The position numbers were made by a program, and so were the translations under genes. DNA of 60,694 nucleotides from a bacterium (lineage in GTDB: Bacteria; Acidobacteriota; Polarisedimenticolia; J045). How positions within the stretch are numbered: position 1 is the stretch's first letter; every line of letters begins with the position of its first letter. The stretch lies in contig JAJFTU010000402.1 in the NCBI GenBank assembly GCA_021372775.1, forward strand, positions 1 to 60,694. The letters run 5' to 3'. Of this stretch, positions 3,921 to 43,534 are shown piece by piece. Under the pieces are notes generated by a model. The model worked only from the letters and a program-made list of their open reading frames with translations. It did not search any database and was not told where the DNA came from.

Positions 3921-4113
3921 GGATGCCCCCTTTCCGCGTGGGGCTGAGCGGCTTCGCGCCGCGCACCTCGCGCGTCTTAACGAGCCGGTACTCGACGCCA
4001 TCGACGCGCGGCTCTTGCCAGAGACGCTCCGCGACGAGCTCCATGAGCCGTGACGGGCGCGGCTCTACGTCCGAGGCGTGCTGGACCTCGACCGTGAAGG
4101 TGGTGATCGTCAT
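3913..4113 (-). CDS. hypothetical protein (66 aa)
   Basis: ATGA overlap with the upstream gene stop at 4110-4113. Confidence 0.45.
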   Translation of the reverse strand: MTITTFTVEVQHASDVEPRPSRLMELVAERLWQEPRVDGVEYRLVKTREVRGAKPLSPTRKGGIHA

Positions 4114-5384: not shown

Positions 5385-5402
5385 TGTTCGTCACCAGCCC
5401 GG

Positions 5403-6299: not shown

Positions 6300-6350
6300 G
6301 ATGAGGAGTCCCTGGTGGCCCTGGACTACTTTCAGCCGAGGCCGCGAAAA

Positions 6351-6503
6351 TTAGTCCACCTGCTGCTGCCGCCTGAACCGCCGCCACGCTCGACGGGTGC
6401 GCTGCTCGCGCCACACCATCCAGCCGACCACCACGACGAGGTAGACCACGGCCGTCACGACGTAGCCGACGGTGACCGTGACCATCGCGTCGGGGGTCAC
6501 CAT
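6351..6503 (-). CDS. small single-pass membrane protein (50 aa)
   Basis: ATG 6503 overlaps the helicase stop (ATGGTGA). TVGYVVTAVVYLVVVVGWMVW followed by a basic tail. Confidence 0.4.
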   Translation of the reverse strand: MVTPDAMVTVTVGYVVTAVVYLVVVVGWMVWREQRTRRAWRRFRRQQQVD

Positions 6504-7768
6504 CGGAACGCCTCCGCGGGGCCCCGCGCGGCCGCGGCCTTCCCGCCGCGGCGCCCGCCCCAGAACGCCGCCTTCCGCTTCCGCTTGTCGTCCTGGCCGA
6601 AGGAGACGTTGGTGAGCTGCCGGTCGCCCGAGAAGACCGCCCACAGGTCGTGCTTCTTGCCGGTGCGCTCGAGGCTCAGGCGCTCGATCGGCCCGAATTG
6701 CGTCGAGAGCCCGACCAGGTCCAGGACGACCGCAGAGACCTTGTCCGGCGCCGGCCGGATGGCGCGCCCGACCTGCTGGTAGTAGACCGCCAGGGACAGC
6801 GACGGCCGCGCCAGGACGACCGTGTCGAGCGCCGGGAAGTCGAACCCGGTCGAGAGCACGTTGACGTTCGCGACGACCTGGAACCCCCCGTGACGGAACG
6901 CCTCGACGAGCCCGGCCCGCTCACGGTCAGGGGTGTCGGCTGTCACAACCGCCGACGAGACGCCGGCGGCGAAGAGTCGCCGCGTGATCTCCTCGGCCTC
7001 GGCCTGGAATCGCGTGAACACCAGAATGTGCCGCCGGCCTTCCTGGGCGAGCGACAGCACCTCGGCCTCGAGCTTCCCCGCAAAGCCGCTGCGCTCGAAC
7101 TCGTCTCGGATGGACTCGTCCGTGAAATCGCCGCCCGTGGTGTTGTACTTGAGTCGCGTCCGCTCGATCGCGGGCTTGACCCGGTAATCGACGGGCGCGA
7201 GGTAGCCGTCCCGCGAGAGGTCGCCGATCTGGGTGACGTGCACGACGTCGGTGAACAGGCGCGGCCGCGTGCGCGTCTGGAACCGCAGACAGGCGCCGAA
7301 GGAGTTGCTGGCGAGCCGGTAGGGCGTGGCCGTGAGCCCGAGGCAGCGCGCGTGCGCCATCAGCCGGATGAAGTCGTGGTACATCCCGCCCTTGGCGTTG
7401 ACCAGGTGGCACTCGTCGACGAGGATGAACTCGACGTCGTGGAAGGCCTCGATATGCCGCACGACGCTGCCGATGGTGGCGAGCGTGACGCGCCCGCGCT
7501 CCCGGCAGCCCATCGAGTCGGACCAGACCGCCGGCTCGTAGCCGTAGGCGCGGAGCTTGCCGGCGTTCTGCTCGATCAGTTCCTTGGACGGCTGGAACAC
7601 GACGCACGGCCCGGGCAGGGCAAGGGCGATGTTGGCCGCCAGGAGGCTCTTGCCCGAGCCCGTGGGCGCCACGATGAGGCCGTGGCGCCCCTTCAGCGCC
7701 GGGTCGGTCAGGTACGAGACGCCGGCGGCAATCGCCGACGCTTGGTAGGGACGAGGGTGGTAGATCAT
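6497..7768 (-). CDS. SF2 DEAD/DEAH-box DNA helicase
   Basis: RPYQ, Walker A APTGSGKS, LVDECH, LGLTATP and C-terminal helicase motifs (VNVLSTGFD, QQVGRAIR). Trimmed to ATG 7768. Confidence 0.85.
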   Translation of the reverse strand: MIYHPRPYQASAIAAGVSYLTDPALKGRHGLIVAPTGSGKSLLAANIALALPGPCVVFQPSKELIEQNAGKLRAYGYEPAVWSDSMGCRERGRVTLATIGSVVRHIEAFHDVEFILVDECHLVNAKGGMYHDFIRLMAHARCLGLTATPYRLASNSFGACLRFQTRTRPRLFTDVVHVTQIGDLSRDGYLAPVDYRVKPAIERTRLKYNTTGGDFTDESIRDEFERSGFAGKLEAEVLSLAQEGRRHILVFTRFQAEAEEITRRLFAAGVSSAVVTADTPDRERAGLVEAFRHGGFQVVANVNVLSTGFDFPALDTVVLARPSLSLAVYYQQVGRAIRPAPDKVSAVVLDLVGLSTQFGPIERLSLERTGKKHDLWAVFSGDRQLTNVSFGQDDKRKRKAAFWGGRRGGKAAAARGPAEAFRW

Positions 7769-7950
7769 CGTGCCGCACTCCTCTTCGCTCGCAGCCTCCG
7801 GATGATGCCCGCGAGGCGCCGGTTCTTCAGCTTCACGTCGGCCACCTGGGCGGCCCAGAGCTGCGCCTTGCCCTTCCAGAACGCCACGTCGGCCCGAAGC
7901 CGCTCGAGCTCGGCGTGGCTGATGTTCGATGTTGGTGCGGCGGTAGTCAT
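7765..7950 (-). CDS. small coiled-coil protein (61 aa)
   Basis: ATGA overlaps at both ends (7947-7950 and 7765-7768). Confidence 0.45.
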   Translation of the reverse strand: MTTAAPTSNISHAELERLRADVAFWKGKAQLWAAQVADVKLKNRRLAGIIRRLRAKRSAAR

Positions 7951-8603
7951 GGTTCCAGTTTGTCGGTCGGGGGCCGCCCGACGTCGATGAAGGCACGCAG
8001 GCCTCGGCTCCTCGAAGGGTGACGGAGTCGCCGCAAGGCGCGGTGTTCCACTTGCCGTATGTACTCGGGCGTCACTTTGAGCAACAGGCCGACCTCCCGA
8101 AGCGTTTTGGGGCTCTCTCCATTCAGTCCGTACCGCCACTCAACGACTTGGCGCTCGCGTGGCGGGATGGAGTCAAGGGCTCCCGCCAGCGCGGCCAACA
8201 ACTCCTCCTCGGCAAGCGACGCCTCAGCCGTCGGCGCAACCAGCAATCTCTGGCGCGGTGCGGCAGCTAGAGGCAGGAAACGGTCAGAAGGGAATTCCAG
8301 CGCCACATGCACCGGCATCGCGTGCCGGTACAATTCTGGTGGGAACAGGTCTTCGGGGGAGTAAGCGCCAAGTTCGCAGAGCCGAACCGCCGTCCTTCGC
8401 AACAGGGGCCCGCGCCTCTTTTTCTTAGAATCCCGCCGTTCGTAGTAGGGGCTCTTCTTGAACGCAAGCAGAGCGCCAATTTGCGTGCACGAGAATCCCC
8501 GCGCCCGGCAGAAGGCTGCCACGCTGACGAACTCATCGAAGATGAGGTGATAGAGCCGAGCGTTCTTCAACTTCAGCTCTATCCGAATGTCGTTGTCGTC
8601 CAT
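7947..8603 (-). CDS. sigma-70 region 4-containing protein (sigma-like factor)
   Basis: C-terminus IPPRERQVVEWRYGL...TLREVGLLLKVTPEYIRQVEHRALRRLRHP matches region 4.2. No recognisable region 2 in the N-terminal half. Confidence 0.6.
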   Translation of the reverse strand: MDDNDIRIELKLKNARLYHLIFDEFVSVAAFCRARGFSCTQIGALLAFKKSPYYERRDSKKKRRGPLLRRTAVRLCELGAYSPEDLFPPELYRHAMPVHVALEFPSDRFLPLAAAPRQRLLVAPTAEASLAEEELLAALAGALDSIPPRERQVVEWRYGLNGESPKTLREVGLLLKVTPEYIRQVEHRALRRLRHPSRSRGLRAFIDVGRPPTDKLEP

Positions 8604-8620
8604 TGGTGTCCGGGCCGCTC

Positions 8621-9175
8621 CTACGCCGCCTTGCCGTCCTTCTTCTCGTCGAGCGGCAGCGCCTGCTGCGGCGACTGCCGCAGCGCGACCGCGAAGGTCT
8701 CGAGGTCCCGCTTCCAACACCCGTGCCGGCGCGCGATCTCGGCGAACTCCTCGAGGTCGTGCCGCCGGAGGCGGTACATCTGCCGGCCGCGCTCGTCCAC
8801 CTCGGGCTCGCCGGTCGTCTTGTCGTACTTCATCGCGCCGTGGCAGAGCTCGTGGTCGATGAGCGCCTTGCGCTGCGCGTCGCTGACGCCGGCGTCCTCG
8901 ATGAACTGGCGGTTGAGCAGGAGCACGAAGTCGTAGGCGGCGAACTCGCGGTCGAGGTCACTCGCCCTCTTCAGGCGGCCGAGCGTGACGCGGCCGTCGA
9001 CGTCGGGCTTCCAGCCGGTCGCCCACGCGAGCGCGACGCGCGCCTTCGCGAGGTCCTCGTGGAAGGCGTCGCGCAGCTCCTTGAGGAAGCCGTAGAGGCG
9101 GACGCCCGCGTCACTCTTCGGGTCGATGATCCGGTAGTTGACCTTCTTCGGGCCCTTCGGCTTGCGCGTTCTCAT
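8621..9175 (-). CDS. putative phage metallopeptidase (HExxH)
   Basis: ALIDHELCHGAM motif. Basic N-terminus. Confidence 0.5.
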   Translation of the reverse strand: MRTRKPKGPKKVNYRIIDPKSDAGVRLYGFLKELRDAFHEDLAKARVALAWATGWKPDVDGRVTLGRLKRASDLDREFAAYDFVLLLNRQFIEDAGVSDAQRKALIDHELCHGAMKYDKTTGEPEVDERGRQMYRLRRHDLEEFAEIARRHGCWKRDLETFAVALRQSPQQALPLDEKKDGKAA

Positions 9176-9713
9176 CGTCGTTGTCCTCCTTGCCAGGGTT
9201 GCGTTTCAGGATGCCGTCGACATCTTCGGGGCAGGCGACGCTGTCGGCGACGGCCACGGCCAGCGCCAGGGCGGACCAGGCGTGCCCGTGCACACCGTAG
9301 AACGCGCCCGGTTTCTTCTTCGTGCCCGGCGCGCCAAAGCGGTCGAGCAGGGTCTGCCGGATGTAGGACTCTTTCGCGTGGCGGGAGTGGCAGAAGTAGC
9401 GGGAGACGTCCCCGAACTCGACGAGGAACGGGTCCCGCCCGCCGGCCAGGCGCCAGTACTCCGCGACCTGGCCCGAGAAGAACACGGTGTCGAGCAGCGC
9501 CCGGCCGGCCGGCCGGCCGAGGGCTTGGGCCCGCTCGATCGCGAGGATGACCAGCGCGTGCTGCTGCTGCAGGCGCAGCGACCGCGGCAGGATGGCGCGG
9601 AGCAGGACGTCGTTCTTGATGGCCGTGCCGGACTCGAGGACCTTCGGCTCGGCGTGGTCCCACACGACGTAGCCGCTGGTCTCGGGGCCCGGGTCGACCC
9701 CCACAATCACCAT
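9111..9713 (-). CDS. RuvC-like Holliday junction resolvase
   Basis: N-terminus MVIVGVDPGPETSGYVV (catalytic Asp motif), then later ILAIE. The acidic low-complexity tail overlaps the next gene by 65 nt. Confidence 0.65.
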   Translation of the reverse strand: MVIVGVDPGPETSGYVVWDHAEPKVLESGTAIKNDVLLRAILPRSLRLQQQHALVILAIERAQALGRPAGRALLDTVFFSGQVAEYWRLAGGRDPFLVEFGDVSRYFCHSRHAKESYIRQTLLDRFGAPGTKKKPGAFYGVHGHAWSALALAVAVADSVACPEDVDGILKRNPGKEDNDDENAQAEGPEEGQLPDHRPEE

Positions 9714-10831
9714 GACGCCACCTCCCGTAGCGCGAGCTGTAGATTGCTTGTGCGCTCGCGTGCCAGTTCGTCCAAGTACTTCGGGTTGATGTCCGCGCCG
9801 AGAAACCGGCGCCCGTGTCTCAGCGCCACGCGCCCGACTGTCGCCGTGCCGCAGAACGGGTCCAGCACGGTGTCACCGGGCCGGCTGCCGGCGAGGATGC
9901 ACGGCTCGACCAGCGCCTCGGGCATCACCGCGAAGTGTGAGCCGCGGTAGGAGCAGGTCGGGATCGTCCAGACGGTGCGAGCGTTCCGGCCACGCTTCAC
10001 GCTCTCGGCGTCCAACGGTTCGCCGTTGAACCGATACGTCTTATGGCCGTCCGCTGCGACTTGTCGGATGCTGCGCCCGCGCTTCAGCGTGGCCGCGTGG
10101 TAGGGCTCGCAGATCGCGGCTTTGTCGTAGTAGTACCGTTCCGACTTCGCCAGGAGGAACAGGTGTTCGTGCGCCTTCGTCGGCCGGTCTGTTACCGACT
10201 CAGGCATCGGGTTGGGCTTCGACCAGATCACATCCGAGCGCAGATACCAGCCGTCCGCTTGCAGCGCGAAGGCCACGCGCCACGGGATGCCGATGAGGTC
10301 CTTTGGCTTGAGACCTGGCAGGGGCATCCGGTTCGGCGGCGTCATCAACCCACGCAACCGCCAAGACTCGCCTTGCTTGCCGCCGCCCGGGCGCTCGCCT
10401 ACCGAACCGCCGCCTGTCGCGTAACTGTCCCCCAGATTCAGCCACAGCGTCCCGTCATCCTTCAGCACGCGCCGCACTTCGCGGAAGCACTCCACCAGCG
10501 TGGCAACGTATTCCTCGGGCGTGCGCTCAAGGCCGATCTGGCGATCGATGCGAACAGCCCCGCACTTGGCGCACAATTCGCGGTACGGTAGGCCAAGCGC
10601 CGGCTCAACGGCTGGAGAGTCGTGGAACGTCCCGCCGCTCGCGGCCCTGTCGCGTCCTCTGCCCCTGGTTCTGATTTGCTCCTGCCGGTGATCGCACTTG
10701 GGATCGCCGCCTTCCCATGTCGCCGTGCCGTAGTCCCGCAGTCCGTAGTACGGCGGCGATGTAATGCATGTCTGCGCTGAAGCGTCAGGGAATGGCAAGC
10801 GCCGAGCGTCCGCGACGACGAGCTGAATCAC
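9707..10831 (-). CDS. DNA methyltransferase (N4-C/N6-A, beta class)
   Basis: Motif IV TSPPYYGLRDY lies N-terminal and motif I VLDPFCGTATVG lies C-terminal. GTGA overlap with the upstream gene. Confidence 0.9.
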   Translation of the reverse strand: MIQLVVADARRLPFPDASAQTCITSPPYYGLRDYGTATWEGGDPKCDHRQEQIRTRGRGRDRAASGGTFHDSPAVEPALGLPYRELCAKCGAVRIDRQIGLERTPEEYVATLVECFREVRRVLKDDGTLWLNLGDSYATGGGSVGERPGGGKQGESWRLRGLMTPPNRMPLPGLKPKDLIGIPWRVAFALQADGWYLRSDVIWSKPNPMPESVTDRPTKAHEHLFLLAKSERYYYDKAAICEPYHAATLKRGRSIRQVAADGHKTYRFNGEPLDAESVKRGRNARTVWTIPTCSYRGSHFAVMPEALVEPCILAGSRPGDTVLDPFCGTATVGRVALRHGRRFLGADINPKYLDELARERTSNLQLALREVASW

Positions 10832-11157
10832 GCGGCCTCTCCGTCTGCCACGCTCGAGCGGGTTTCGAAGAATCCGGCCAACTCCGGGTAGTCCCGCATG
10901 AGCAGGCGCGCGTAGAACGCGCGGTAGTTGTTGTTCAACTTGAAGGGGTCGGTGCCGTCGGTCTCAAACCGACTCCACCAACGGAGGCGCTCGAAGAGCG
11001 CGCCGATGCCGAAGTGGCCGCGGCCTGTCGCCTTGGCGGCCACCGCGAGCTCGGCGAGCTTGCGGTACACGTGCGGGTTCGCCTCGTGGAACGCCAGGAA
11101 CTCACGCTCGAGGCGTTCTTCGAAGAGCGGCAGGTGGCTCACGCGGACATCTCCCAT
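10828..11157 (-). CDS. hypothetical protein (109 aa)
   Basis: ATG 11157. FHEANPHVYRKL...LNNNYRAFYARLLMRDYPELAGFFETR. Confidence 0.5.
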   Translation of the reverse strand: MGDVRVSHLPLFEERLEREFLAFHEANPHVYRKLAELAVAAKATGRGHFGIGALFERLRWWSRFETDGTDPFKLNNNYRAFYARLLMRDYPELAGFFETRSSVADGEAA

Positions 11158-11582
11158 CGCAGTTTTCCCTGCAGCGGGTGCTTGTCTACGCGGGGCCGCG
11201 ACTCGCACGACCATGAGCGCCCGCGCACCTGGCCGACCAACTTCCAACCGGCCGCCCTGAGACTTGTACCCGGCTCGGTGTCGAGGATGTAGGTGACGAC
11301 CTTCCGGTATCCCATCGCCCTTGCCGCTCGCCAAGCTGCCGCGTAGAGGCAACTGCAAGCGTGCGGCGTGCCGTCCGTCGCTACCCGCGTCACTTCCAAT
11401 GTCCAGCCGTCATCGAGCATCCGCGCGACGGGCCGCCCCACCATCGCCACTCCGACCACGGTCTCGCCGGCCGCGCACGCGATAGAGAACTTCACGCGCA
11501 CGGGCGGCTGGTGGTGCCGGTGGTGTTGACGGACGAACGCGCACGCCTCGTCGAACGACACCGGAACCACGGATAGCCTCAC
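11139..11582 (-). CDS. GNAT-fold protein, XF1762/Mom-like candidate
   Basis: FVRQHHRHHQPP...VVGVAMVGRPVARMLDDGWTLEVTRVATDGTPHACSCLYAAAWRAARAMGY...SLRAAGW. GTGA start overlap. Family call is from memory. Confidence 0.45.
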   Translation of the reverse strand: MRLSVVPVSFDEACAFVRQHHRHHQPPVRVKFSIACAAGETVVGVAMVGRPVARMLDDGWTLEVTRVATDGTPHACSCLYAAAWRAARAMGYRKVVTYILDTEPGTSLRAAGWKLVGQVRGRSWSCESRPRVDKHPLQGKLRWEMSA

Positions 11583-25301: not shown

Positions 25302-26792
25302 TCAGACCTGCCTCTCGAGCGTCGAGGGTGTCATCGCCGCGGCGCTGGCCGACGGCTGAGTAGCCACGACGGCCGCCACCACGATCACATCGGGCAGCGC
25401 CGTGTAGCGCGTAAGCGGGGCGAGTGTCACGGCGAGCGATCCCGTCACGGCGACGGTCCCGCTTCCGGTCACGGTCAGGGGCTGGAGCGTCTCATCGAGC
25501 GCGCCGTGCGGGTTGTTCGTCACGAGGGCAGACGCGACGAGCGTCGCCGCGCCTAGCGTGTCCCCACAGACGGCGTGCACAGCGACGGCTCCGCTCGCCG
25601 CCACGGTCGCCTCGCCGAGCGTGATAGCGGCGGATGCGGACGCCTGCACGGCCCCTGCGCCGGCGAGCGTCAGCGCCTCAAGCGTGGCGGTTAGTGAAGC
25701 CGAGACCTCGCTGACGACGGCCTTCTTGAACGAGACGCCGATGATCGACCACTTCCCCGACCCGGCCGCGGCCATGTCGCCCGCGTGCGTCGAGCCGGAG
25801 GGCACCTGGTAGGTCTCGGTGCCCGCCTCAAACGTGCCCTCCACGCTCTGCCGGAGCGTGAAGTCCGAGCCGGCCGCGAGTGGACCGGCGCCGCTGTCGT
25901 TGATGGTCGCCGCACAGCAGAGCAAGTCGCCCGCCGCGACCGTCACGGCGCTTGAGGTCGCCGGGGACGCGCTCGTGCCCTGCCCGGTCTGGACGTTGCG
26001 AACCGGGTTGCCGAACGTGCAGATCCCCGTGAACACGTGGATCGCGAACACGCAGGCGCCAGCGCCCGAGGTCGTGCCCGTGACGGTCAACGAACCGTCA
26101 GCCGAGGCTCGGCCCCAGAAGGCCGACGTCCGGCCCGCCCCGGCTGGATTCGTCACGGTGGCGATGGAGGTGTAGGCGTTCTCTTGCGAGTCGGTCGGAG
26201 CGTTGTGCGTGAACGATCCGGTCGTGACCTGGTGGTAGGAGACCAGGATCAAGTCGCCGGCCTTGACGGTGACGGTGCGGCTCCACGCGGACGACGACGA
26301 GACGTGACTGCTCGAGAGGTAGGTGCCCCATCCGGCGACGACGGCGAGATCGGCGCCGTAGCTCGTGCCGACGGCGTTGGTCGCGTAGGCGCGGACGTGG
26401 TAGCCCGTGCCTCCCGACAAGCCGGTGGCGGTCGCCTCGAACGCGCCGGTCGTGCCGTCGGCCGTCGCCTTGCTGTCGGCGACGGTCGGATTCAGCGACG
26501 TGGACCAGCAGATCCCGCGTTCGATGATCGCGCCGCCGCCGTCGTCCACCACGTCACCGTTGACGCTGAGGACGGTCGGCGAGGGGATGTTGGCAAGACC
26601 GACCGTCTGGACCGACGGCGCGACGGCATCGCTGACGGTGCCTGTTCCCGCCAGGGTGAGGGCGCCGAAGGTGACGTCGGCCGAGCCGGCGACAGCCACG
26701 GCCGCCGCCAGCGTCATCGCGTCCAGGGTGGCGGAGAGTGATCCCTGGACCTCCGTGGCTTCCTGCGGCCCCATGAAGGTGAGGAAGGACAC
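25302..26792 (-). CDS. tail fibre / receptor-binding protein candidate
   Basis: 496 aa, rich in A/T/G/S/V. Repeated L(D/E)A(M/L)TLAG segments at both ends. Located in the tail region. Confidence 0.55.
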   Translation of the reverse strand: MSFLTFMGPQEATEVQGSLSATLDAMTLAAAVAVAGSADVTFGALTLAGTGTVSDAVAPSVQTVGLANIPSPTVLSVNGDVVDDGGGAIIERGICWSTSLNPTVADSKATADGTTGAFEATATGLSGGTGYHVRAYATNAVGTSYGADLAVVAGWGTYLSSSHVSSSSAWSRTVTVKAGDLILVSYHQVTTGSFTHNAPTDSQENAYTSIATVTNPAGAGRTSAFWGRASADGSLTVTGTTSGAGACVFAIHVFTGICTFGNPVRNVQTGQGTSASPATSSAVTVAAGDLLCCAATINDSGAGPLAAGSDFTLRQSVEGTFEAGTETYQVPSGSTHAGDMAAAGSGKWSIIGVSFKKAVVSEVSASLTATLEALTLAGAGAVQASASAAITLGEATVAASGAVAVHAVCGDTLGAATLVASALVTNNPHGALDETLQPLTVTGSGTVAVTGSLAVTLAPLTRYTALPDVIVVAAVVATQPSASAAAMTPSTLERQV

Positions 26793-28022
26793 TCAGTACC
26801 TCCACACCGGAGCGGCGAACCGCTGCACGTCGATGGCCCCAGACGCCGCGATCCGTCGATTCCCCGCCTGATTCGGGTGCCAGCCGTCCGTCGAGAACGG
26901 GGCGCCGGTCCCCACGTACCAATGGCCGCTGTCGCGGGCGGTCTGAATCGTGTCCGCGATTTCGTGATACCCCGCGAGTCCCGTGCCGGTCAGGTCGCCG
27001 CGGAGGCGATTGTTGAGCGCGGCGACATAGGTCTGATACCCGGATTGCGCCCCGTCCCCCGTCGAGGCGTTCGTCTGATCGTCGGGCGCCACGAAGCCGT
27101 TGGCGCTGTTCGAGATGGACGGCACCGTGTCGGCATAGACCCGCTTCCCCATCGCGGCGAAGTAGCCCCAGATCGTGATCATGTTGGCCCACGCTTGCGT
27201 GTCATTGCTGGTGCCGTAGATCACGTCGCCGCCGCCGAAGGTGCTGATCACGTGTGAGCAGTAGGCCGCAACCGCGAGGTCGATCGCGTGATTCTGGGCG
27301 ACGAACTGAGCGGCCTGACGCCCACTACAGCCCGCGTTGCAGTAGGCAAACGCCGGCCCGATAATCCGCGACCCGTACCCCGCATCACCCGCGTTGGCAT
27401 CCACGATGTCTTGCACGCCCTGTTGGCGGGAGTCTCCGGCCAGATAGAACGAGGGGCGCGTCGTCGGGCCGACCAGCGCCACGGGGCCGATGTGGATGCC
27501 GTAGGTGTTGTCGGTGACGCTCCCGCTCACGGTCAGGTCGCCCACGTCGAACTGGCAGGCGTCCCCGTTGGCCGTGTCCATCGGCGTGAAGGCCTGCACG
27601 TTCGAGTCGGTGTAGACGTAGCCGGTCGCCGAAGCGTAGTACATCCGCCAGTAGGCTTTCGCTCCTCGTGGGATCGGGACGGAGAGGTAGTCCGAAGTCA
27701 ACAGCGTGCCACTGGCCACGTTGGTGGGCTTCTGCACGCCGCCGAAAAAGAACGGGTAGAACGTCCCGGCCGGGTATTCAATCGAGGCCGCAATGGTCGC
27801 CGTGGCCCCGCTGGCGGTGTTCCCGGTCGCGGGGGTCGAATAGCCGTTGTACCAGATAAAGCGGAGGCGTCGGATGTCATCTCTCGCGTAGAAATACCCA
27901 CGCGACATCAGGTTGCCGGGGAGGTCCGCCGTGATGAGATTCGTGGCGAACCGTCCCCGGGTGCCCACATACCCGACGTAGGACGGCATGACCAGCGGGC
28001 GGCGCGCAAGAATGACGCCCAT
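26793..28022 (-). CDS. tail-associated SGNH/GDSL hydrolase
   Basis: FYLAGDSRQQG (GDS block) and C-terminal DGWHPN (D-x-x-H). N-terminal beta-rich domain. Trimmed to ATG 28022. Confidence 0.65.
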   Translation of the reverse strand: MGVILARRPLVMPSYVGYVGTRGRFATNLITADLPGNLMSRGYFYARDDIRRLRFIWYNGYSTPATGNTASGATATIAASIEYPAGTFYPFFFGGVQKPTNVASGTLLTSDYLSVPIPRGAKAYWRMYYASATGYVYTDSNVQAFTPMDTANGDACQFDVGDLTVSGSVTDNTYGIHIGPVALVGPTTRPSFYLAGDSRQQGVQDIVDANAGDAGYGSRIIGPAFAYCNAGCSGRQAAQFVAQNHAIDLAVAAYCSHVISTFGGGDVIYGTSNDTQAWANMITIWGYFAAMGKRVYADTVPSISNSANGFVAPDDQTNASTGDGAQSGYQTYVAALNNRLRGDLTGTGLAGYHEIADTIQTARDSGHWYVGTGAPFSTDGWHPNQAGNRRIAASGAIDVQRFAAPVWRY

Positions 28023-28026
28023 GATC

Positions 28027-28698
28027 TCAGTCCTGCGCGACGTGCAACACCAGCGTGTAGGTCTGCGACGCAATCGGCGTGTGCGCCGTCAGCGCCTTCA
28101 GGGTCCAGTAGATCACGCTCACGCCGGCCGCCAGCGCGGCGGCGATGTACGGTTGCCCCTGCACTTGCAGCGGCGTCGAGAGGCCATCGGTCCCGATGAT
28201 GTTGGTGCCGGAGATCAGCGTGCCGAGGTGGTTCGCCATGCCCGAGGAGATCGCCCACGCCGCGTTGTCCACGGCGACCCCTGGCGCGGCGGACCACAAG
28301 TCCACCTGGAACTGCGCGGTCGCTCGGCTGGCGTCGGTGCCGTTGCTGCGGAGCAACCCACCGAGAATCACCGCCGACGCTGCCGCCGCCCTCGTGATCG
28401 TGATCGATGGCACCGTCGGGCTCGTGGTACTCGACGCGACCATGTCGTTGATCGAGTAGGCCGTCGTTGGAGTCGACGGCCGCGTGAGCGTGGAGGTCGG
28501 GACAGCCGTGTGACCGACCGGCAGCCCATCGACGACCGACACCACGCGCTGGGGATCGCCATCGACCCCCGTGCCGCCGTAGTCGACCCCAACTGCCTGG
28601 ATCTTGATCGGCGTGCCGGTGTCGTCGCCACGGCCGGCCAGCGGCAGCGACGCCGGGGGCTTGCCGTCCGCACCGAAGGTGATAGGTGTTCTCGCCAT
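28027..28698 (-). CDS. tail-region structural protein (223 aa)
   Basis: ATG 28698. T/S/A/G-rich. Confidence 0.5.
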   Translation of the reverse strand: MARTPITFGADGKPPASLPLAGRGDDTGTPIKIQAVGVDYGGTGVDGDPQRVVSVVDGLPVGHTAVPTSTLTRPSTPTTAYSINDMVASSTTSPTVPSITITRAAAASAVILGGLLRSNGTDASRATAQFQVDLWSAAPGVAVDNAAWAISSGMANHLGTLISGTNIIGTDGLSTPLQVQGQPYIAAALAAGVSVIYWTLKALTAHTPIASQTYTLVLHVAQD

Positions 28699-28727
28699 GA
28701 GCGTTCTCCTTGGCTCCAGAGCCCGCT

Positions 28728-29129
28728 TTAGGCGTTGCCGTCGGTCAGGGTGAACCCGGTGATCGTGACCGTCTGCCCGTCCGCCACGACGGTGTTGTCG
28801 AGCTGCATGTCGCCGGTCCCGATGCCGCACGTCCCCTGTATCTTGCAGGTCGTGCCATCGCTGGCGTAGATCCGGAAGTGGCCGATCGTGCCGCCTCCGC
28901 CCGAGGCCGTCCCCGACCAGGTGCCGGACTTGGCCTTCGCCCCGCTCGACGCGGCGGCCAGATAGTCCGCCGGCAGCGACATGGAGCAGAGTACGGTGCC
29001 GGAGTCGGCGGCGGCGCAGTTGGCCGGCGCGGCGCCGCTCCGAAGTTTCAGAACGGCCGACGCGCCGATCTCGGTCTCGATCGCGTCGAGCCGAGCGTTG
29101 CGGGTGAGAACTGCGAGCTGGATGCCCAT
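28728..29129 (-). CDS. tail-region protein (133 aa)
   Basis: ATG 29129 with AGGAG 6 nt upstream. Confidence 0.5.
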   Translation of the reverse strand: MGIQLAVLTRNARLDAIETEIGASAVLKLRSGAAPANCAAADSGTVLCSMSLPADYLAAASSGAKAKSGTWSGTASGGGGTIGHFRIYASDGTTCKIQGTCGIGTGDMQLDNTVVADGQTVTITGFTLTDGNA

Positions 29130-29132
29130 GAC

Positions 29133-29168
29133 GTGCTCCTGTGAATGCCAGGGCGGCATCAGGAGCAC
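29133..29168 (-). promoter_or_regulatory. hairpin that sequesters the RBS of the 29129 gene
   Basis: gtgctcctg (29133-29141) pairs with caggagcac (29160-29168). tgcc (29146-29149) pairs with ggca (29155-29158). The SD AGGAG is inside the 3' arm on the minus strand. Confidence 0.35.
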
Positions 29169-29411
29169 GCGCGGCCTACGAAAGGCGGGGCGTGCTGGCG
29201 GGCCTGGAAGTAGTGACGCCGGTTCGGTCTACCTACACCGTCGCGTGATCGCGACGGGCAACGTCCGTCGGTCGGTCTCCAATCTGCGCGCGGTCACAGC
29301 GCGGCGCCAGGCGGGGGTCACTGGCCTCCTGCGCGAGCCAGCGTTCCCACGCCACGATCGCCATCTTCGCGGCTCGGATCAACATGCGGTGCAATTCTAC
29401 GCTCGCCGTGG

Positions 29412-29918
29412 TCACGACGCACGCTCCGGTGTGGCCGACGAGTCCCATCCGGTTTCGTAGGCCCGGACGATCTTGGCCACGTAATCGAGCGGTACGCAGG
29501 TATCGCGCCACGAGCCGCTGTTGTAGGCGTCGGCGGCGTTCTCGAGCGTGCCGCCCTGGCTACGCACCAGAAAGCGGCAGACCAGCGGCGCGAGCACGGC
29601 ATCATCCTTGAGCGCCTCGGGCGGCCCGTTGAACCCGAGCTCGCGTGCGGTCGGGAACATCATCTGCCACGTGCCGTAGCTGCACGCCGCGCCGGGCCCA
29701 AAGCGCGCGTAGAGGTCGCGCACTGCAGCCGACTGCCGGTACATCACGCCGCCCGGCGCGTAGGCCCGCTCGTGGCGCGGGACGCCGCGGTCACGGCCGT
29801 AACTGGACTCGACGGCCGCGAAGGCCCACAGCACCAGCGCGCCGTCGCAGGGGACGCCGTTGTGCGAGAGCGGCGGCACCTGGGCACCAAACTGGCAGCA
29901 CGTCTCTCGGAGGGTCAT
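29412..29918 (-). CDS. endolysin candidate (lysozyme-like / lytic transglycosylase fold)
   Basis: FAAVESSYG (catalytic Glu context), YGTWQMM, AADAYNSGSW. Directly downstream of a holin-like gene. Confidence 0.6.
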   Translation of the reverse strand: MTLRETCCQFGAQVPPLSHNGVPCDGALVLWAFAAVESSYGRDRGVPRHERAYAPGGVMYRQSAAVRDLYARFGPGAACSYGTWQMMFPTARELGFNGPPEALKDDAVLAPLVCRFLVRSQGGTLENAADAYNSGSWRDTCVPLDYVAKIVRAYETGWDSSATPERAS

Positions 29919-29924
29919 CGCTTA

Positions 29925-30215
29925 TCACTCCTCGGCCGGGCCAATGCGCATCGCCCGCTCGATGTTGGCGAGGCGCGTGTCGATCCCCTGCAGGGTCGCT
30001 TCGATGGTGTCCTTGCGCGCGAAGCTCGCCAGGTCCGCGTTCAGCCGGGAGAGTTCACGGTCGCACTGCGCCCGGCACGAGTCCATCCGTTGACTGAGTG
30101 CCGCCGGCGTCGAGTCGGTGCGCTGCCTCCACATCCCGATCGCGATGATGAGGCCCAGGATGAGCATGGCCGCCTGCACCACCTGAATGACGTCTGCCAC
30201 CGCCGCCCAATTCAT
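29925..30215 (-). CDS. holin- or spanin-like single-TM protein
   Basis: VVQAAMLILGLIIAIGMW transmembrane segment followed by a coiled coil. Trimmed to ATG 30215. Confidence 0.45.
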   Translation of the reverse strand: MNWAAVADVIQVVQAAMLILGLIIAIGMWRQRTDSTPAALSQRMDSCRAQCDRELSRLNADLASFARKDTIEATLQGIDTRLANIERAMRIGPAEE

Positions 30216-30267
30216 CGCCGCCGCCTTTCGTGGTGGGTCGGCCGACGGCCGGACCCGCGTTGCCGGC

Positions 30268-30909
30268 CTACACCACCCCGTGACTCGCCAGAATCGACCA
30301 CGCCGAGACCCCATCTGACACCAAGAGAATCGAGGGGCACACGCCGTCCGCCGCCACGGGAATCGTGTAGGCCCCTTCCACGCCGTCGATCGTGTCCGAC
30401 CCGACCGGGTAGAGCGCGATCGGTTGCGTGCCGACGTTCTTCACGATGAGCGGCTTGCCGCGGCCGGCCGCCGGCGGCATCGTCACGTGGCACGGGTTCG
30501 GCCCGCCGCTCGAGGCCACGGTTACGAGCACGTCGGTCGAGACGATCGCGTAGAAGTCCGTGACCGACTTCGTGCCGGCCGCGAGTTCGAGCCCGAACCG
30601 CTCCAGCCATGTGAGACCGACATCCTCCGCGCCGTCGTGCGGAGGCCCGACCTGGTCGCCGTTCGCGTCCTTGAGGACGAATTGGTAGCCGCCCGCGCCG
30701 AGGAACACCGAGGCCGACGGGCGGCCGTCCGACCCAAGGACCAGCGGGTTGTCGTGTTCGACGGTCCGGCCCGCGTCGGTGTAGACCGCCTTGTGCACGG
30801 TCGTCGAGCCGGCCTCGAAGCACTCGAGCGTCCCGCCCGCGAGCGGCGCGCCGATCGCGTCGTGGAACTGCAGGTCGATCCAGGACAGCAGCGAACCAGG
30901 CAGAGACAT
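30268..30909 (-). CDS. tail fibre/spike-associated protein (213 aa)
   Basis: ATG 30909, 10 nt after the giant ORF stop. Beta-rich. Confidence 0.5.
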   Translation of the reverse strand: MSLPGSLLSWIDLQFHDAIGAPLAGGTLECFEAGSTTVHKAVYTDAGRTVEHDNPLVLGSDGRPSASVFLGAGGYQFVLKDANGDQVGPPHDGAEDVGLTWLERFGLELAAGTKSVTDFYAIVSTDVLVTVASSGGPNPCHVTMPPAAGRGKPLIVKNVGTQPIALYPVGSDTIDGVEGAYTIPVAADGVCPSILLVSDGVSAWSILASHGVV

Positions 30910-30919
30910 CGTCGGTCCC

Positions 30920-33900
30920 TCAGTGAATCGTCGGTTTCCCAAGCCCCTGGCGCACGACATTCAACATTCGTGCGTAGAGCGCGTTCAGCTTCGCGCGCCG
31001 GTCGTCCGGCGAGAGCCGCGGGTCCTCGAACGCCTTGTTGACCTGCTGGCTCAGGGTCCTCAGTCGGGTCTCGGCGAACGCGATCCGGGCGGCCGTCAAC
31101 CGCGCGTCGCCGCCGTACTCGGCGTCCAGTTCCCGCGTCCGCGCCTTCGCCTTGGCGGTGTCCCCGCTCGCGCGATACTCGTCCACGCTCCGCAGCGCGC
31201 CCCGCAGCGCGTCCCGCGTCTCGTAGAACTCCTGGAACGACTGCGCGTCGGCCCGCGGGGTCTCCCGGTAGAAGGCACTCACGAACGGGGCTCGGGCCAG
31301 GCCGCCAGACGGCCGCTTGTCCTTCGCGATCCCGGTCGCGGAGAGCCCGGCATCGGTCGCGCCTTCGATCCCGCGCCCGAGGCCGGCGGTGTAGCCGTAG
31401 ACCAGGTGGTCGAACTTCGCGGGCGCCATCCTAAGCTTCGGCGCGATGAGCTTCGCGGCCTCGCTCGTCCAGCGCCCCGCCTGCAGCTCCGGGTCGAGGG
31501 TTGTATCGTAGGGGTTGACGATGCTCCGGCCGCGGAACGTGTCGTAGTTCACCGCCGCTTCTAACGCCGGGACGATGGCGGTCGGCGTGATCGACAGGAT
31601 CACGTTCCACGCGCTCGACGCGCCGCCCGGGAAGAGGCGGTCGGCCACCTTCTTGTCCTTCCCGCTCATGTAGTCCATCGCGGCTTCGAAGAACGAGCCG
31701 AAGATCATCCCGATCTCGAACGGCTTGGGGATGCGGGCCCAATCGTGCCCGTGCGCACGGCCAAGCGGCACGTGCCAATACGTGTTCCGCTCCCACGCCG
31801 GCAGCTCGTGGTAGTCCGGATCGGTGTGGTTGAGATACCAGAGCGCCAGCGACTGGAGCGTGATCCCGATGGTCGCCCGCCAGACGGCCCCGAGTGCTCG
31901 ACGCCGGCGCGGAGACCAATGACCCTTTGGCCCTTCCTTCATCGGAATGGGCGGTTGGCCGTCCCCGCCAAGTGCCTTCCCGCCCGGTCCTGGCGTGCCG
32001 CCTCCGGCCGCGGCATCCATCCCGCCGAACACCTCAGCGAGCCGTGCCCACCCCTGCACCCGCGCGTTGAAGAACGCCGTGTAGCGGTTGGCTTCCTTGC
32101 TATACCGGCCGCCCCGGGCGAAGTCGAGCGTGACGTCACGGGCCGCGAGCGCCGCGCGGGCGTAACCCTCGGCCGTCCGGCCCTCCTTCTCAACGGCCCC
32201 CATGAACTCGCCGAGCCGCGTGGCGACCTCCGTCGCTTCCGAGATCGCCCGCAGCAGTTCGATCGGGTTCCGGACGATGCTCGCGAGGAAGGCCCGGCGC
32301 TGGCTCTTCCCCATCCGCCGGAGTTCCTCCCGGATGCGGTTGCGGTCGGCCGAGACGAGCGCGGCGTTGCCGGCGCCGCTGTTCATGAACTGCTGGTAGA
32401 GTTCCCCGTTGCCCACGAACTCGAACAGCCCGCGCATTGAGTCGTAGCCGAGACGGAAGCCGTACCGCGAGTTGATGTAGGCCGTCCAGGTGTCGCGGAT
32501 GGGGTTCCGGGCTGCGAACGACACCGTCAGCGTGGCGCCGGCGCGCAGCAACCGGGCCGGGCGCATCAGGAGGTTGATGACGAGGTCGGAGTGCTTCGGC
32601 CCGATCGCGGTGATGGCGTCGTAGAGGGCCTGGTCGTTGGCGGCGTACCACTGCCGTTTACCGTCCTGGATGACCGTCACCAGGCCGCCCTTGCCGGTCG
32701 GCATGTAGAGCGGGGTGAAGACCACGGCCGATTCGTCCAGCGCCTCATCGAGGTTGTCCGGCAACTCCACGCCCGCATCCTCCAGCGCCTCACGGATCTG
32801 CGGCGTCAGGCGGGCAAGGTTGAACTTCGTGGCGGCCACGGGCGCGGGCACCTTCTCGAGGAACCGCCCGCCGCCCTCGGTCGATTCGGCCTGCGCGACC
32901 AGGGCCTGCATCGCCCGGTTCGCCTCGACCATGTTCACGAGCGTGTGTGTGTTCCGAATGATGCTCTCGAGCGGGTTGACGATGTCCCGCGTCGAGCCCT
33001 TGATCCGCTTGATGGGCACACTCCGGTTCGCGATCTTGCTCCCGGGGCCCCCACCGAACGCGCCCGAGACGGTGTCCTGCACGCGCTGGTAGGGGACGTA
33101 GTGCGGATTCAGCGCCCGCATCTGGACCGCCTGCTCCGGGGAGACCGCGCCGGCCTGCACCGCATAGTCGATGACGGCGTCCTGGAAGTCGTAGACCGCC
33201 TGGCGCGCCTCGTCGAACTCGGGCGACTGGAATGCGTCGAGGATCGCCTGGGCTTCGTCCGTCGTCATGCCGGCCTTCATCCCGCGCGCCGTCAGGTCGG
33301 CCACGCGGGACGCGACGAGGTAGGCGGCGAACTCGCGCGCCTGGTGCGCGACCGGCTTCAGGGCCGGCTCCAGTCCCTCGGAGAGCTTGGACCCGTCCGG
33401 CAGGCGCACGCCGTTCCGGAGGAAGCCGTCCGCCTTCATCGCCGCGCCCCGGGCGAGACGCGCGAGCGCGTAGCCGTTGCGGAGGATCTGTTCTGGCGTG
33501 CCGAGTTCCTTCACCATCCGACGGATCGGCGCGAGGTCGTCCACCCATGCGGTCTCAAACCGCAGCATCCAGTCGGCCTTCGGGTCAGGCTCCTGGCCGG
33601 TGAAGTCGATACGGGCCAGCCCCCTGGCGATCGAGTCCGCGCCGAGGAATCCGGTGATGAGCGTCCGAGCCTGCTCGATCGAGGCTTTCAACTCGGGCTC
33701 GACTTGCAGCGCGTCCTCGAAGGCGGCCAGGTAGAGCGGCGCCCGATTCTGGGCGGACGCCGGGTCGGACAAGTAGAGCCGCAGGAACTCGGCCTCGCCT
33801 TCCTTGCGCTTCTCGCCGGGGTCGGCGTCCAGTTCCAGGATGTCGGCGCCGAGCGCCTCAAGTTCTTCGGAGTAGGGCCGCCGCCCGCGCCGGAGGTTCA

Positions 33901-36900: not shown

Positions 36901-39900
36901 GGTGCAGGGCGAACGGCAGCGCCAGGCCGGGCAGTGTCAGGTGTGACCCGTCGAAGATCCGGGCCACCGTGCGGTTGAAGCGGGTGTTGAACGTCGACAG
37001 GAGCCGTTGCTGGACGTCCTCGTGCTCCATCACCCACTGCATCCACTGGGATCGGATCTCGTCGAGGTTGCCGCGGGCCGCCAACGTCGCCTTCTCGTCG
37101 CGGACGTAGTGCCGGTTGTCCTTGTCGCCCTCCATCGTGCCGAGGTCCGGCGTCTTCAGGTTCAGCGCGTCGTTGAGCAGGTCGAGGAACCCGTAGGTCT
37201 TCTCCTTGGCCGGACCGTAGGTGACGGCGAGCGCGTGCTGAGTGGAGGCGCGCGTCGCGGTGTGGCTGTTGCCGGACCCGACGGTGACCGACCAGGTCAC
37301 GTAACTCTCGGCGCCCTGGAGCTTCGCGGTGACGGCGTCGTCGCCGAGGCCGAGGGCCTGCGCGACGAAGGCGGCCAGGTCATCCTCGGGCACCCAATGC
37401 GAGCCGAGGGTGATCGAGACGGCGCCGCCGTAAAGGTCGTCGGCGGTCTTGTCGGCCGGCTGCACCGCCCGGAGCGCGTCGACGTTCACCTGGAACTTGG
37501 GGTCGTCTTTGGCCGCGGCCTCGGCGTCGGCCAGCTTCGTCTTGACGTCCCCGCTCAGGTACTCGTCGGCCAGGACGGTGGACCCGTCGGGCTGCTCGAA
37601 GATCCGGCCGAGGTGGGCGAGCTCCGCTTTCAGGGTGTCGATCGGCTGGCCAGAGATCCGCGCCATGTAGGGCCAGTCGATCCGCGTCTTCGTGCCGACC
37701 GAAGCCATCAGGGCGTCCACCGCGGAGTCGGCGTGGTCAATCTCGCGCTCAGCCCGGATGGTTCGCTTCGTGAAGATGTCGTGCTTGGCGACGAACTCGT
37801 GCGTCACGCGCAGCCGTTGCTCGCCGTTCTTCAGCGTCACGACCGCGGCCGTCGGCTTCAGGATCTCGAGCCCGCGGAGGTTGTGAGACTCGGGATCGAT
37901 GTCGAACAGGCGCCGGTTGATCTTGTCGTTCAGTCGCCCGTGGGCCTTGACGAAGCCGTCGTAGGCTTTGCCGAGGGCCCGCTGTGCCTTCGCGATCTCG
38001 GCGTCGGTCGACTCCGTGTTCTCCATCGCGGCCACGGTCGCGCGCAGCGCGTCGCGGACCCCGATCATGCCGGCCACGCGCTTGACCGCGGCCGAGTCGA
38101 CGACCTCCGACTTCGTCTTCTGGTTCTTCCGGGTCGGGGTGTGGTCGACGATCTGGCCGTCGCTCGTGACACGGTCGATGCGGCCCTTGGCCGGGCTTAC
38201 GCGCAGCTCGTTGACCTTGTAGCTGTCCTTGTCGGCCATGCGCGGCGCCGGCGCCGGTGCCGTGGCGCTCGTCGTCGCGGGCACGTAGGACCCGGGGGGC
38301 AGGAGTGTGGCGAGGGCCGTGCGCAAGTCTCCGGTGACGTCGTCGCTCTTGGCGGTGACGGTATATTCCCCGGACCCGTACATCGTGCCTTCGGTGCTCT
38401 CCTTCCCGAGGACCAGGTCGGGATGCGCCGTGTACCACGCGGAGCGGTAGACGTTGTTCTCGCGAGACTTCCGATTGCGGCCCCACCCGCTCGAGGATGT
38501 CGTCGAGAGGTCCTCGGCCTTCGGCGCCTCGATGAAGAGGTCCGCGTTGCGCGCGACCTTCTCATCCGGCATGAACCGCTGGAGCACAACCAGGTCGGTG
38601 ACGACCTCCGTCTTCGCGCTCTTGTCGAACGCGCTGTTCGGCAGGCGGACGGCGCCGACAAAGTGCGCCCGCTCCATCAGGTAGCGCCGGAAGCCCGTCG
38701 CCTCGGCTCCGTCCATGGTGTAGCGGGACGTCAGGAAGACGATGAGCCCGCCCGGGCGCACGTGCTGCATCGCCTTCGCGAAGAAGTAATTGTGCAGGGG
38801 CTTCGTGAGGAACTTCTGCGCGCCGGCAAACTCCGGGTCCTCGACGCCCGTGTCCGCGAAGGGCACGTTGGAGATGACGAGGTCCTGTGTGCCCCGTGCG
38901 ACTCGGGCGTCCTGGTAGCCGACCGCGTGCACGCGAGCCCTTGGGTAGAGCGCCTGTGCGATGGCGGCCGTCATCGGCTCGAGCTCGACGGCGGAGAGCG
39001 TGGAGGCGGCGCGCACATCGCCGGGCATGAGGCCGAAGGCGTGACCCGTGCCGACGGCCGGCTCGAGCACGCGCCCGCCCGTGAATCCGGCCGCCGCGAG
39101 CACGTCCCACACGGGCCGATATAGGTCGTAGGTGAAATGGGCGTTGCGCGTCGAGTGGAACGCGGAGTCGCGCTCGGCCTCCGACAGCAGCGACCGGAGG
39201 TCCTGCCACACGGCGGTCTGGTTCGCGCTCCAGCCGTAGTCGGGCGTGGTCGTCCGCGGGTCGACGTACTCGGCGAGGTCGGACGCGCCCCATCCGACGT
39301 AGCGGGCGAGCACGTCCTGCTCGTCGGGCGTCGCGTACCGCTTCTCGGTCTGGAGAGTCTTGACGAGGCGGATCGCCTCGACGTTGCCGCGCGCCCGCTC
39401 GAGTGGGCCGCGCTTGATGATGGCCTGAACGCGCTCAGGAGTGAGTTGGTAGTCGGGAGCCTTTACGCCTGGGTCGTGGGTGTCTCCGGCGGGGGATAGA
39501 GCCACTCGTTCCGGTAGCGCGTCCACGCTTCCGCGTCGGTCAGCTTCGGATCCCTCGCCTGCGCCAGCAGGCTGCTGTACTCCGTTCGGTGCCACGCGGC
39601 CCGAATCGCTCGGTCGAGTGCCAACGGCCCCTGGCTCTCCAGTTGCTTCGACAGGTTCGGCAGGAACCGCTGCCAATACGCCTTCGCGTCTAGCTCCCGC
39701 GGGCCGAGGGGTTCCGCCTCCACGCTCGGCGGGTTGTCCGGGTCGTACACGCCCACTATCTCTGACATTGGCGGCCTCCCCTTCTGAGGATACCGTAGGG
39801 CCACCTTCCGCCGGAGTCAAGGCCGGCGCGGCGGTCGCAAGAGAATTGCCCTCGAGGAGGTCGTTCGCCCAATCCATTTCGCCGAGGTACCACGGACTCC

Positions 39901-43531: not shown

Positions 43532-43534
43532 TAG

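Follow-up and report, generated by a model that had tools for sequence, protein, structure and literature searches.

Genes embedded out of frame within other genes are textbook features of tiny phages; in tailed double-stranded DNA phages they are, to our knowledge, essentially limited to the Rz/Rz1 spanins. In lambda-like and also in Bcep22-like phages, Rz1 lies wholly inside the same-strand Rz gene in the +1 frame, has a ribosome-binding site of its own and is expressed from one late mRNA. A gene embedded in this manner was analysed in a stretch of 60,694 nucleotides (nt), called the window throughout and comprising positions 1 to 60,694 of contig JAJFTU010000402.1 in the bacterial assembly GCA_021372775.1 (Acidobacteriota, Polarisedimenticolia, J045). 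The window has the appearance of a podophage-type genome, about 60 kb in size. Its minus strand carries, according to the list of open reading frames (ORFs), a giant ORF of 12,612 nt (30920-43531) that encodes a DarB-like polyvalent protein of 4203 amino acids. An ORF of 101 codons plus a TAA (39463-39768) lies complete inside it, on the same strand and in the +1 frame. This nested ORF is very probably a genuine protein-coding gene that is translated on its own, the same DNA being read by the giant ORF as a disordered linker. An out-of-frame embedded phage gene is thus known as a kind from Rz/Rz1, and the present instance stands apart by how deeply it is conserved, by its polarity and by its location in the gene of a putative giant virion protein. 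Rz1 is a lipoprotein, born and working with Rz in lysis, whereas the nested protein has neither a signal peptide nor a lipobox. The embedded gene also looks older here, and the frame that hosts it amounts to no more than a tether of low complexity in a protein of over 4000 amino acids.

The giant ORF encodes a polyvalent protein, in which an N6-adenine methyltransferase, an SNF2-type helicase and other effectors are combined in one polypeptide. The Pfam domains found in it are SLT (amino acids 24-119), GGDEF (610-716) and Eco57I (1547-1629), and on the C-terminal side SNF2/ResIII/Helicase_C (2208-2800) and LPD38 (3904-4066). The joining of SLT, methyltransferase, SNF2 helicase and LPD38 in a single chain resembles the polyvalent proteins described by Iyer et al. 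(2017; PMC5512222). The text of that paper has the domains strung in one frame, describes no gene in another frame and mentions neither frameshifts, overlaps, linkers nor low complexity; the terms "embedded" and "reading frame" concern only embedded peptidase domains and neighbouring small ORFs. DarB of phage P1 shares the methyltransferase and helicase core within a giant gene. In P1, however, the gene opens with the methyltransferase itself, and N-terminal modules, a linker and a nested ORF are all lacking. A full-text search of the literature gave no prior report of an overlapping gene in DarB-like or polyvalent genes, and the papers on phages LASTA, Atu_ph08 and JC1 discuss the giant gene without a nested one.

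The ATG of the nested ORF is at 39768-39766 and its TAA at 39465-39463. The start is offset by 3727 nt from the start of the giant ORF (3727 mod 3 = 1), which places it in the +1 frame, and the 101-residue sequence is exactly as quoted in the original prediction, made from the letters of the window alone. The Shine-Dalgarno sequence GGGAGG claimed there was also confirmed; it occupies 39775-39780, 6 nt before the ATG, where the giant frame reads ...EGEAAN.... Over the 101 codons, the G+C content at third codon positions (GC3) amounts to 0.86 for the nested frame, 0.51 for the giant frame and 0.68 for the third frame, in agreement with the hand-counted values of about 86% and 50% for the first two. 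In the flanks the giant frame has the high GC3 that had been expected, 0.83 over 293 codons upstream and 0.93 over 299 codons downstream. A sliding-window profile shows that the switch between frames starts near 39870 and stops near 39500, and such a switch is present in every relative examined. Because the third position of the nested codons is the first position of the giant codons, a linker rich in Gly, Ala, Pro, Arg and Glu (G/A/P/R/E) could by itself raise the nested GC3. The fall of the giant-frame GC3 to 0.5 is not explicable by linker composition. The coding question is decided by the substitution data.

The part of the giant protein that is encoded by the same bases as the nested gene (39464-39835, minus strand; approximately amino acids 1233-1356) is of low complexity. 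The richness in G/A/P/R/E that had been described for it is borne out: these residues make up 65% of the segment of approximately amino acids 1233-1360 and 43% of the whole protein, while F/I/L/M/W/Y account for 3% and 20%, respectively. An AlphaFold2 (AF2) model of amino acids 1150-1560, calculated from the single sequence, has a mean predicted local distance difference test score (pLDDT) of 38.5, with about 125 overlap residues lacking predicted secondary structure between helical flanks. Such a low-confidence model lends weak support to the linker being a disordered tether.

The pattern of substitutions in relatives follows the nested frame inside the overlap and the giant frame outside it. 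Among the Erwinia phages PEp14, Pavtok and Stean, the flanks show 0.20-0.23 differences per site at the third position of the giant codons and 0.01-0.07 at the other positions; within the overlap the value for the giant third position is 0.10, and the maximum (0.162) is found at the third position of the nested codons. In the Burkholderia phages Bcep22, BcepIL02, DC1 and JC1, the giant third position has 0.154 downstream of the nested region and 0.090 in the overlap, where the nested third position has 0.148. In divergent lineages the giant wobble position is the one that varies least within the overlap, and the amino acid identity there is 45-56% in the nested frame versus 33-39% in the giant frame. 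The 16 overlap differences between the window and the metagenome contig L001 (loci of the comparison are referred to by L numbers) comprise eight synonymous and eight non-synonymous changes in the nested frame, compared with three and 13 in the giant frame; over the next 900 nt, on the methyltransferase side, the giant frame has 66 synonymous and 24 non-synonymous changes. Judged by these substitutions, purifying selection is acting on the nested frame. The module of about 370 base pairs is conserved in the alignment of relatives, and what was found is the opposite of a linker conserved in the giant frame over a nested frame carrying stops. The suggestion that it is the nested frame on which selection acts, with the giant frame remaining open and coming back into phase afterwards, has thus gained support from the homologues, the periodicity of substitutions, a confident fold prediction and the ATG with its Shine-Dalgarno sequence.

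The continuity of the giant frame requires separate consideration. The part upstream of the nested gene has no in-frame stop. The start of the methyltransferase module (38600-39463, minus strand; KAPDYQLTPERVQAI...YVGWG...), which directly follows the nested gene in all cases, has no ATG, GTG or TTG near its conserved beginning, the first in-frame GTG being about 45 codons in. The probability of an open giant frame, P(open), was obtained by resampling the synonymous codons of the nested protein and counting the share of sequences free of a giant-frame stop. It is 0.10-0.30 for each of six lineages of the window's clade (21% for the window itself), 0.04 for L017, 0.01 for L018, 0.011 for L019 and 0.0000-0.34 for 12 cultured phages. 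The product for the six lineages is about 6e-5 and the summed log10 for the cultured phages is -20, both of which overstate the significance since the lineages are related. Nevertheless, protein identities of 32-58% among the lineages mean that the giant frame has survived many substitutions despite this kinship. In genomes with 47-51% GC the giant frame is open although P(open) is 0.0000-0.01. It is free of stops in all intact loci, against a P(open) of 0.0003-0.34 per lineage, and conservation of the nested ORF extends to more than 25 loci.

Decayed nested copies with several giant-frame stops are present in two soil metagenome fragments (L008, 657-935, and L009, 3822-4028). After "...QNP" the nested reading in these copies passes into the sequence of the giant frame, and the copies may represent remnants within bacterial genomes. 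The contrast between a giant frame that is open everywhere else and the stops in the decayed copies suggests that the openness is kept by selection. As far as can be judged from comparison of the loci, both frames are kept in relatives beyond chance, and it is most simply assumed that the giant protein is read straight through the overlap.

Profile and structure searches placed the 101-residue product in an unnamed helical family and gave no match in Pfam or in the PDB. The three close relatives are stand-alone genes of 101-107 amino acids on short metagenome contigs, with identities of 95, 56 and 58%. A profile search of 1.84 billion cluster representatives (E<=1e-3) returned 72 matches of 72-374 amino acids, none of them a domain of a giant protein, and a second profile added 22 further representatives, all metagenomic, having neither a name nor a Pfam domain. 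No member of the family that was found bears a name in the databases. Free-standing copies, in which the overlapping frame is broken, come after a DUF968/HNH gene in L011 and L012, beside hicAB in L013, and in L033. The last of these is a 53-kb contig (ENA ERZ27315036) in which the copy P0061 (132 amino acids, 10001-10399) directly follows the stop of an SNF2-helicase gene (3905-9997, 2030 amino acids). That gene is preceded by one of at least 1955 amino acids, and two small genes (180 and 224 amino acids) come after P0061; this order may be the unfused arrangement.

The AF2 model of the nested protein, calculated from only four sequences, has a pLDDT of 84 and consists of four helices. The protein has no match in Pfam even at E<=1, and a Foldseek comparison of the model with the PDB found no similar fold (best E=2.3). 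In the BFVD, the top and sole convincing match was Q8W6J4_2, with a probability of 1.0 and a TM score of 0.62. This is probably the protein of phage PBC5 that carries the domain in frame, and the modelled similarity would connect the clade of the window with the MNLNNW clade in structure. Nine of 24 diverse members of the family match the Pfam family TnpV (PF14198) with E values from 4e-4 to about 0.1, all in the same region of the model, and no other family recurs; the best relatives score 16-20 bits, below the 27-bit gathering threshold. TnpV, known from Tn4451 and from clostridial and streptococcal mobile elements, is likewise a small helical protein of about 110 amino acids, and the two families have a similar layout of motifs (W/aromatic-x-x-h-h-P ... 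L-x-x-x-G-x-L ... A-x-E). It is plausible from these sequence matches that the nested family is remotely TnpV-like, in the sense of remote homology and not of membership in TnpV. The function of TnpV is itself unproven and has been postulated to be Xis-like (PMC3158075).

The signals at the nested start are conserved. A GGAG, GAGG or AGGA core lies at -16 to -4 of the start in 20 of 21 lineages, compared with a background of 13% (binomial 7e-17). The start methionine stands at a constant distance from a conserved HW.(E/R)F.P motif, and the nested frame is closed by stops 3-16 codons upstream of its ATG. The conserved Shine-Dalgarno core, the constant start and the closed upstream frame together point to internal initiation on the mRNA of the giant gene rather than to frameshifting. 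A scan of 39200-40100 against Rfam found no recoding element, only a chance match to a microRNA (E=1), and no slippery motif was seen to be conserved in an inspection of the aligned starts by eye, which was not exhaustive. The original prediction had also assigned a promoter to the nested gene. The sequence TTGACT-17-TACGGT (39792-39820, minus strand; TTGACT at 39820-39815 and TACGGT at 39797-39792) is present as described, but its role as a conserved functional element did not hold. It agrees with the consensus at eight of 12 positions, and a sigma-70 consensus scan of 36000-43600 gave no promoter-like site. Only L001 and L002 have the hexamers as well; L003 has a weaker TTGCAG-17-TAAGGT, and L004, L005, L007, L010 and L020 lack them. 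There may be an internal promoter in this particular phage, which would not be part of the conserved design.

The nested unit occurs in the viral contigs L004 (giant protein of 3520 amino acids) and L005/L006 (3670 amino acids), in the metagenome contig L007, and in the distant loci L017, L018 (an Alkanindiges contig with 50% GC and a giant protein of 4982 amino acids), L019 and L035. In L020, found in an Actinomycetota metagenome-assembled genome (CAWCXH010000002.1, 9496-18809), the methyltransferase (955 amino acids), SNF2 helicase (1197 amino acids) and SprT-like part (1120 amino acids) are separate ORFs that overlap at their ends, and the small gene is still embedded in the methyltransferase ORF, after a 130-amino-acid coding N-terminal domain. 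This element is situated on a 188-kb contig and could be a prophage or another mobile element. A search for related loci with alignment A4 found no viral locus. In the plasmid collection there was one match, at 14826-15047 of NZ_CP137607.1 (Brucella pseudintermedia, 59,075 bp), under a "PLxRFG domain-containing protein". Listed as a non-mobilizable plasmid, the record is as large as the POI1126-type phages and is probably a phage or phage-plasmid genome.

Among cultured phages, tblastn of the window's own nested protein against INPHARED gave no match, and the link to these phages was established only through the divergent proteins of L018 and Itty13. With these two queries 21 INPHARED records were matched, the phages being Atu_ph08, PBC5, VvAW1, POI1126, LASTA/SJM3, SopranoGao, Pavtok, PEp14, Stean, Itty13 and Mwe-JY07. 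The sole annotation under the nested ORF in the matched phages is the giant coding sequence (CDS), labelled "DarB-like antirestriction", "PLxRFG domain-containing protein", "DNA methylase" and the like. The offset of the nested ORF from the start of this CDS, calculated from the coordinates, is 1 mod 3 in LASTA, Atu_ph08 and VvAW1, as in the window. In Itty13 (L027, NC_070969.1 5006-11419; 68% GC) the annotated CDSs (5006..8467 and 8507..11419) lie on the strand opposite to the giant and nested ORFs, and the DarB-like gene appears to have been misannotated as antisense hypothetical proteins.

The methyltransferase module was found by tblastn in 112 phage records, nearly all of them labelled DarB-like, DNA methylase or PLxRFG protein. 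Phages that have this module and no tblastn match to the nested protein were sampled, among them Bcep22, Ralstonia phage Gerry, Pseudomonas phages 8P and USP_25, and Pseudoalteromonas phage Y7. Each of these five has, in the equivalent place, a +1 ORF of 90-117 amino acids with a Shine-Dalgarno sequence and a GC3 of 0.65-0.90, compared with 0.39-0.46 for the giant frame, and that of USP_25 matches the hidden Markov model (HMM) of the family at 1.6e-8. On their sequences, the Bcep22-type nested ORFs are positional analogues and possibly distant homologues. The arrangement as a whole spans phages of Actinomycetota-like, alpha-, beta- and gammaproteobacterial and cyanobacterial hosts. Its occurrence in such diverse hosts at 32-58% protein identity indicates that it is ancient.

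Several observations speak against an independent and widespread small gene, in addition to the kinship of the lineages mentioned above. The window's protein has no Pfam match and no neighbour in the PDB, so that homology supports no function for it. The nested product is known here from the sequence alone, and the published mass spectrometry of virions was searched against annotated proteins only. The Bcep22-type ORFs are linked to the window's family weakly, by an hhalign probability of 23% and a shared P..Y..hK..G.L motif. P1 darB and a human-gut phage contig with 40% GC have no nested ORF, and the feature is therefore not universal in DarB-like genes. Lastly, the N-terminal part of the PBC5 protein is in frame with the nested ORF; if this is real, a fused product is tolerated and a reading by frameshift stays alive. 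In such a reading, programmed +1 frameshifting would yield the N-terminal modules joined to the TnpV-like domain, and the nested ORF would be a C-terminal extension. It would explain why the nested ORF is always on the same strand and in the +1 frame, and why the RefSeq CDS of PBC5 (26155..32697) ends at the nested stop, its downstream methyltransferase part being unannotated. Compared with Atu_ph08, PBC5 (L028, NC_003324.1 at approximately 26460-26520) has a deletion of 1 nt (GTCGAAGC to GTCGAGC) and an insertion of 12 nt just upstream of the nested start. Either the record contains a sequencing error here or the fused variant is natural; the single-base difference, in a Sanger record of 2002, may be an error. 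Frameshifting is also at odds with the ATG (or GTG) and Shine-Dalgarno core kept in 20 of 21 lineages, with the stops that leave almost no space for a shift site, with the lack of a recognizable slippery motif or Rfam element and with the free-standing members, which begin at the equivalent methionine. It is accordingly regarded as unlikely.

Three further explanations are less probable still. If the locus were three ordinary genes (N-terminal, small, and methyltransferase-helicase), the giant frame would be open by chance, an illusion of high GC content. At 68% GC a frame that starts on the wobble base of a real gene is indeed poor in stops, as the resampling result for the window illustrates, and gene callers split the region in this way on short contigs. 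But the upstream part has no stop at which the first gene could end and the methyltransferase module no nearby start codon, and the frame is open in every lineage, including those with 47-51% GC, at a joint probability below 1e-20. The decayed copies display the unconstrained outcome, giant-frame stops, and in L020 the small gene remains embedded behind its coding N-terminal domain even though the other parts are split. This explanation is extremely improbable, and the same is true of a non-coding shadow ORF, in which the pattern would result indirectly from selection for the giant-frame linker or for an element of the RNA or DNA. The giant-frame motifs GxGxLEGV(S/P) and TNEPEQL recur across lineages, and linker composition alone lifts the GC content at the nested third position. 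The giant wobble base is nevertheless the most conserved position of the overlap, the reverse of what the singly coding giant frame shows in the flanks; homologues stand alone at loci with a broken giant frame; and the confident helical fold from four sequences, the sub-threshold TnpV matches and the lack of an Rfam family likewise speak against it. A recent mobile cassette that landed in the linker, carried by a TnpV-bearing element, is very unlikely. Integrative and mobilizable elements bearing TnpV do integrate site-specifically into snf2 of the integrative and conjugative elements of Streptococcus suis (PMC9815147), and the nested start is preceded, at a distance of about 90 nt, by a mosaic breakpoint. 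However, the same frame and position across diverse host phyla point to great age, the nested unit is accompanied by no recombinase, repeats or att-like ends, and the homology of the window with L001 runs downstream without interruption into the methyltransferase module.

The preferred reading is thus that of a small gene translated independently within the giant one. Ribosomes on the long late mRNA would read the approximately 370 bases of the overlap as a G/A/P/R/E-rich tether that connects variable N-terminal modules to the methyltransferase-helicase core, while other ribosomes would start internally at GGGAGG-6-ATG and produce the 101-residue protein. The composition of the tether would arise as a side effect of the overlap, since every giant codon takes as its first base the G/C-rich wobble position of a nested codon; such codons specify Gly, Ala, Val, Asp, Glu, Pro, Arg, Leu, Gln or His and include few stops. 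The small gene would be the older reading, and the giant ORF would have annexed its upstream modules by reading across the small gene in the other frame. The free-standing members of the family, its remote similarity to TnpV and the low complexity of the giant product favour an old small gene over a new gene born inside an old one. Among the three origins that had been offered, an old gene that came to be read across, by fusion or read-through, is therefore the favoured one; birth of a new gene within the old is not favoured, and recent insertion of a cassette does not fit in view of the age and spread of the arrangement.

The edge of the linker seems, on sequence comparison, to be a recombination joint at which N-terminal modules are swapped. 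Ungapped bins and blastn place a mosaic breakpoint at 39850-39860: downstream of about 39856 (777 in L001), some 90 nt before the nested ATG, the window is 88% identical to L001 up to the end of the contig. Upstream of the junction the two are unrelated, except for a similar patch of 69 nt at L001 720-788.

The terminase, portal, major head and head-closure genes of the window lie on the same strand, with the giant ORF downstream of them. This position relative to the late structural block and the N-terminal SLT domain suggest that the giant protein may be packaged in the virion. The accessory proteins of P1 DarB are DarA, DdrA, DdrB, Hdf and Ulx. Small co-encoded proteins are required for, or enhance, the incorporation of DarB into the P1 capsid, and Ulx "enhances incorporation of darB" (PMC10695390). 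The DarB-like gp69 of JC1 was found to be associated with the virion by mass spectrometry, and in Bcep22-like phages no homologues of the P1 accessory proteins (DarA/Ulx-type) are known (PMC9144972). By analogy, it is possible, if rather doubtful, that the small protein serves the DarB-like core as an accessory. It could be a partner in folding, packaging or the control of activity, similar in role to Ulx or DarA of P1 and not homologous to them; the family HMM gave no match in P1 darB, ulx or lxc. A wider proposal by the same analogy, still more tentative, is that the nested protein would be the missing accessory of the DarB-like virion giants in Bcep22/PEp14/LASTA-type phages. It would bind the giant protein, perhaps at the methyltransferase module or at the tether encoded by its own DNA, and control its folding, packaging or activity; the heavier the traffic of ribosomes on the giant frame, the lower its yield would be, and growth of the giants would have come about by fusion across a gene that stays intact. 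A pair of overlapping products that bind each other is known from mammalian GNAS, where XL-alpha-s as well as ALEX is encoded in a Pro/Ala-rich low-complexity region with ALEX as the +1 ORF (PMC1186735). However, that system is eukaryotic and uses leaky scanning, and its likeness to the nested pair is a lead, not evidence.

Two other features of the giant gene were observed. The GGDEF domain (E=1e-19; window 41384-41704, minus strand) is known here by its domain match alone, and a cyclic-di-GMP synthase delivered by a phage would be an unusual cargo for a polyvalent protein. Antisense and off-frame ORFs of 150-700 amino acids overlie the giant gene, for example at 37007-39124, 32591-34438 and 39480-39929 on the plus strand. 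They are expected at 68% GC, some of them reaching a GC3 above 0.8 by a mirror effect. These ORFs are a trap for gene callers and constitute no evidence for further overlapping genes.

The nested gene is missing from every annotation examined and nameless in all sources of the protein collection. Gene callers have a blind spot for it, reporting it only when a short contig cuts the giant ORF off, and proteomic searches against annotated proteins could not reveal it. With at least a dozen cultured phage genera and hundreds of metagenomic sequences, it would be the second deeply conserved case of its kind in tailed phages. DarB-like giants take up about 20% of these genomes, and a conserved small gene beside the methyltransferase module is a candidate for a helper of such proteins. 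The arrangement also suggests a route of domain accretion, by which a long ORF annexes upstream modules across an intervening gene that is read in a stop-poor frame.

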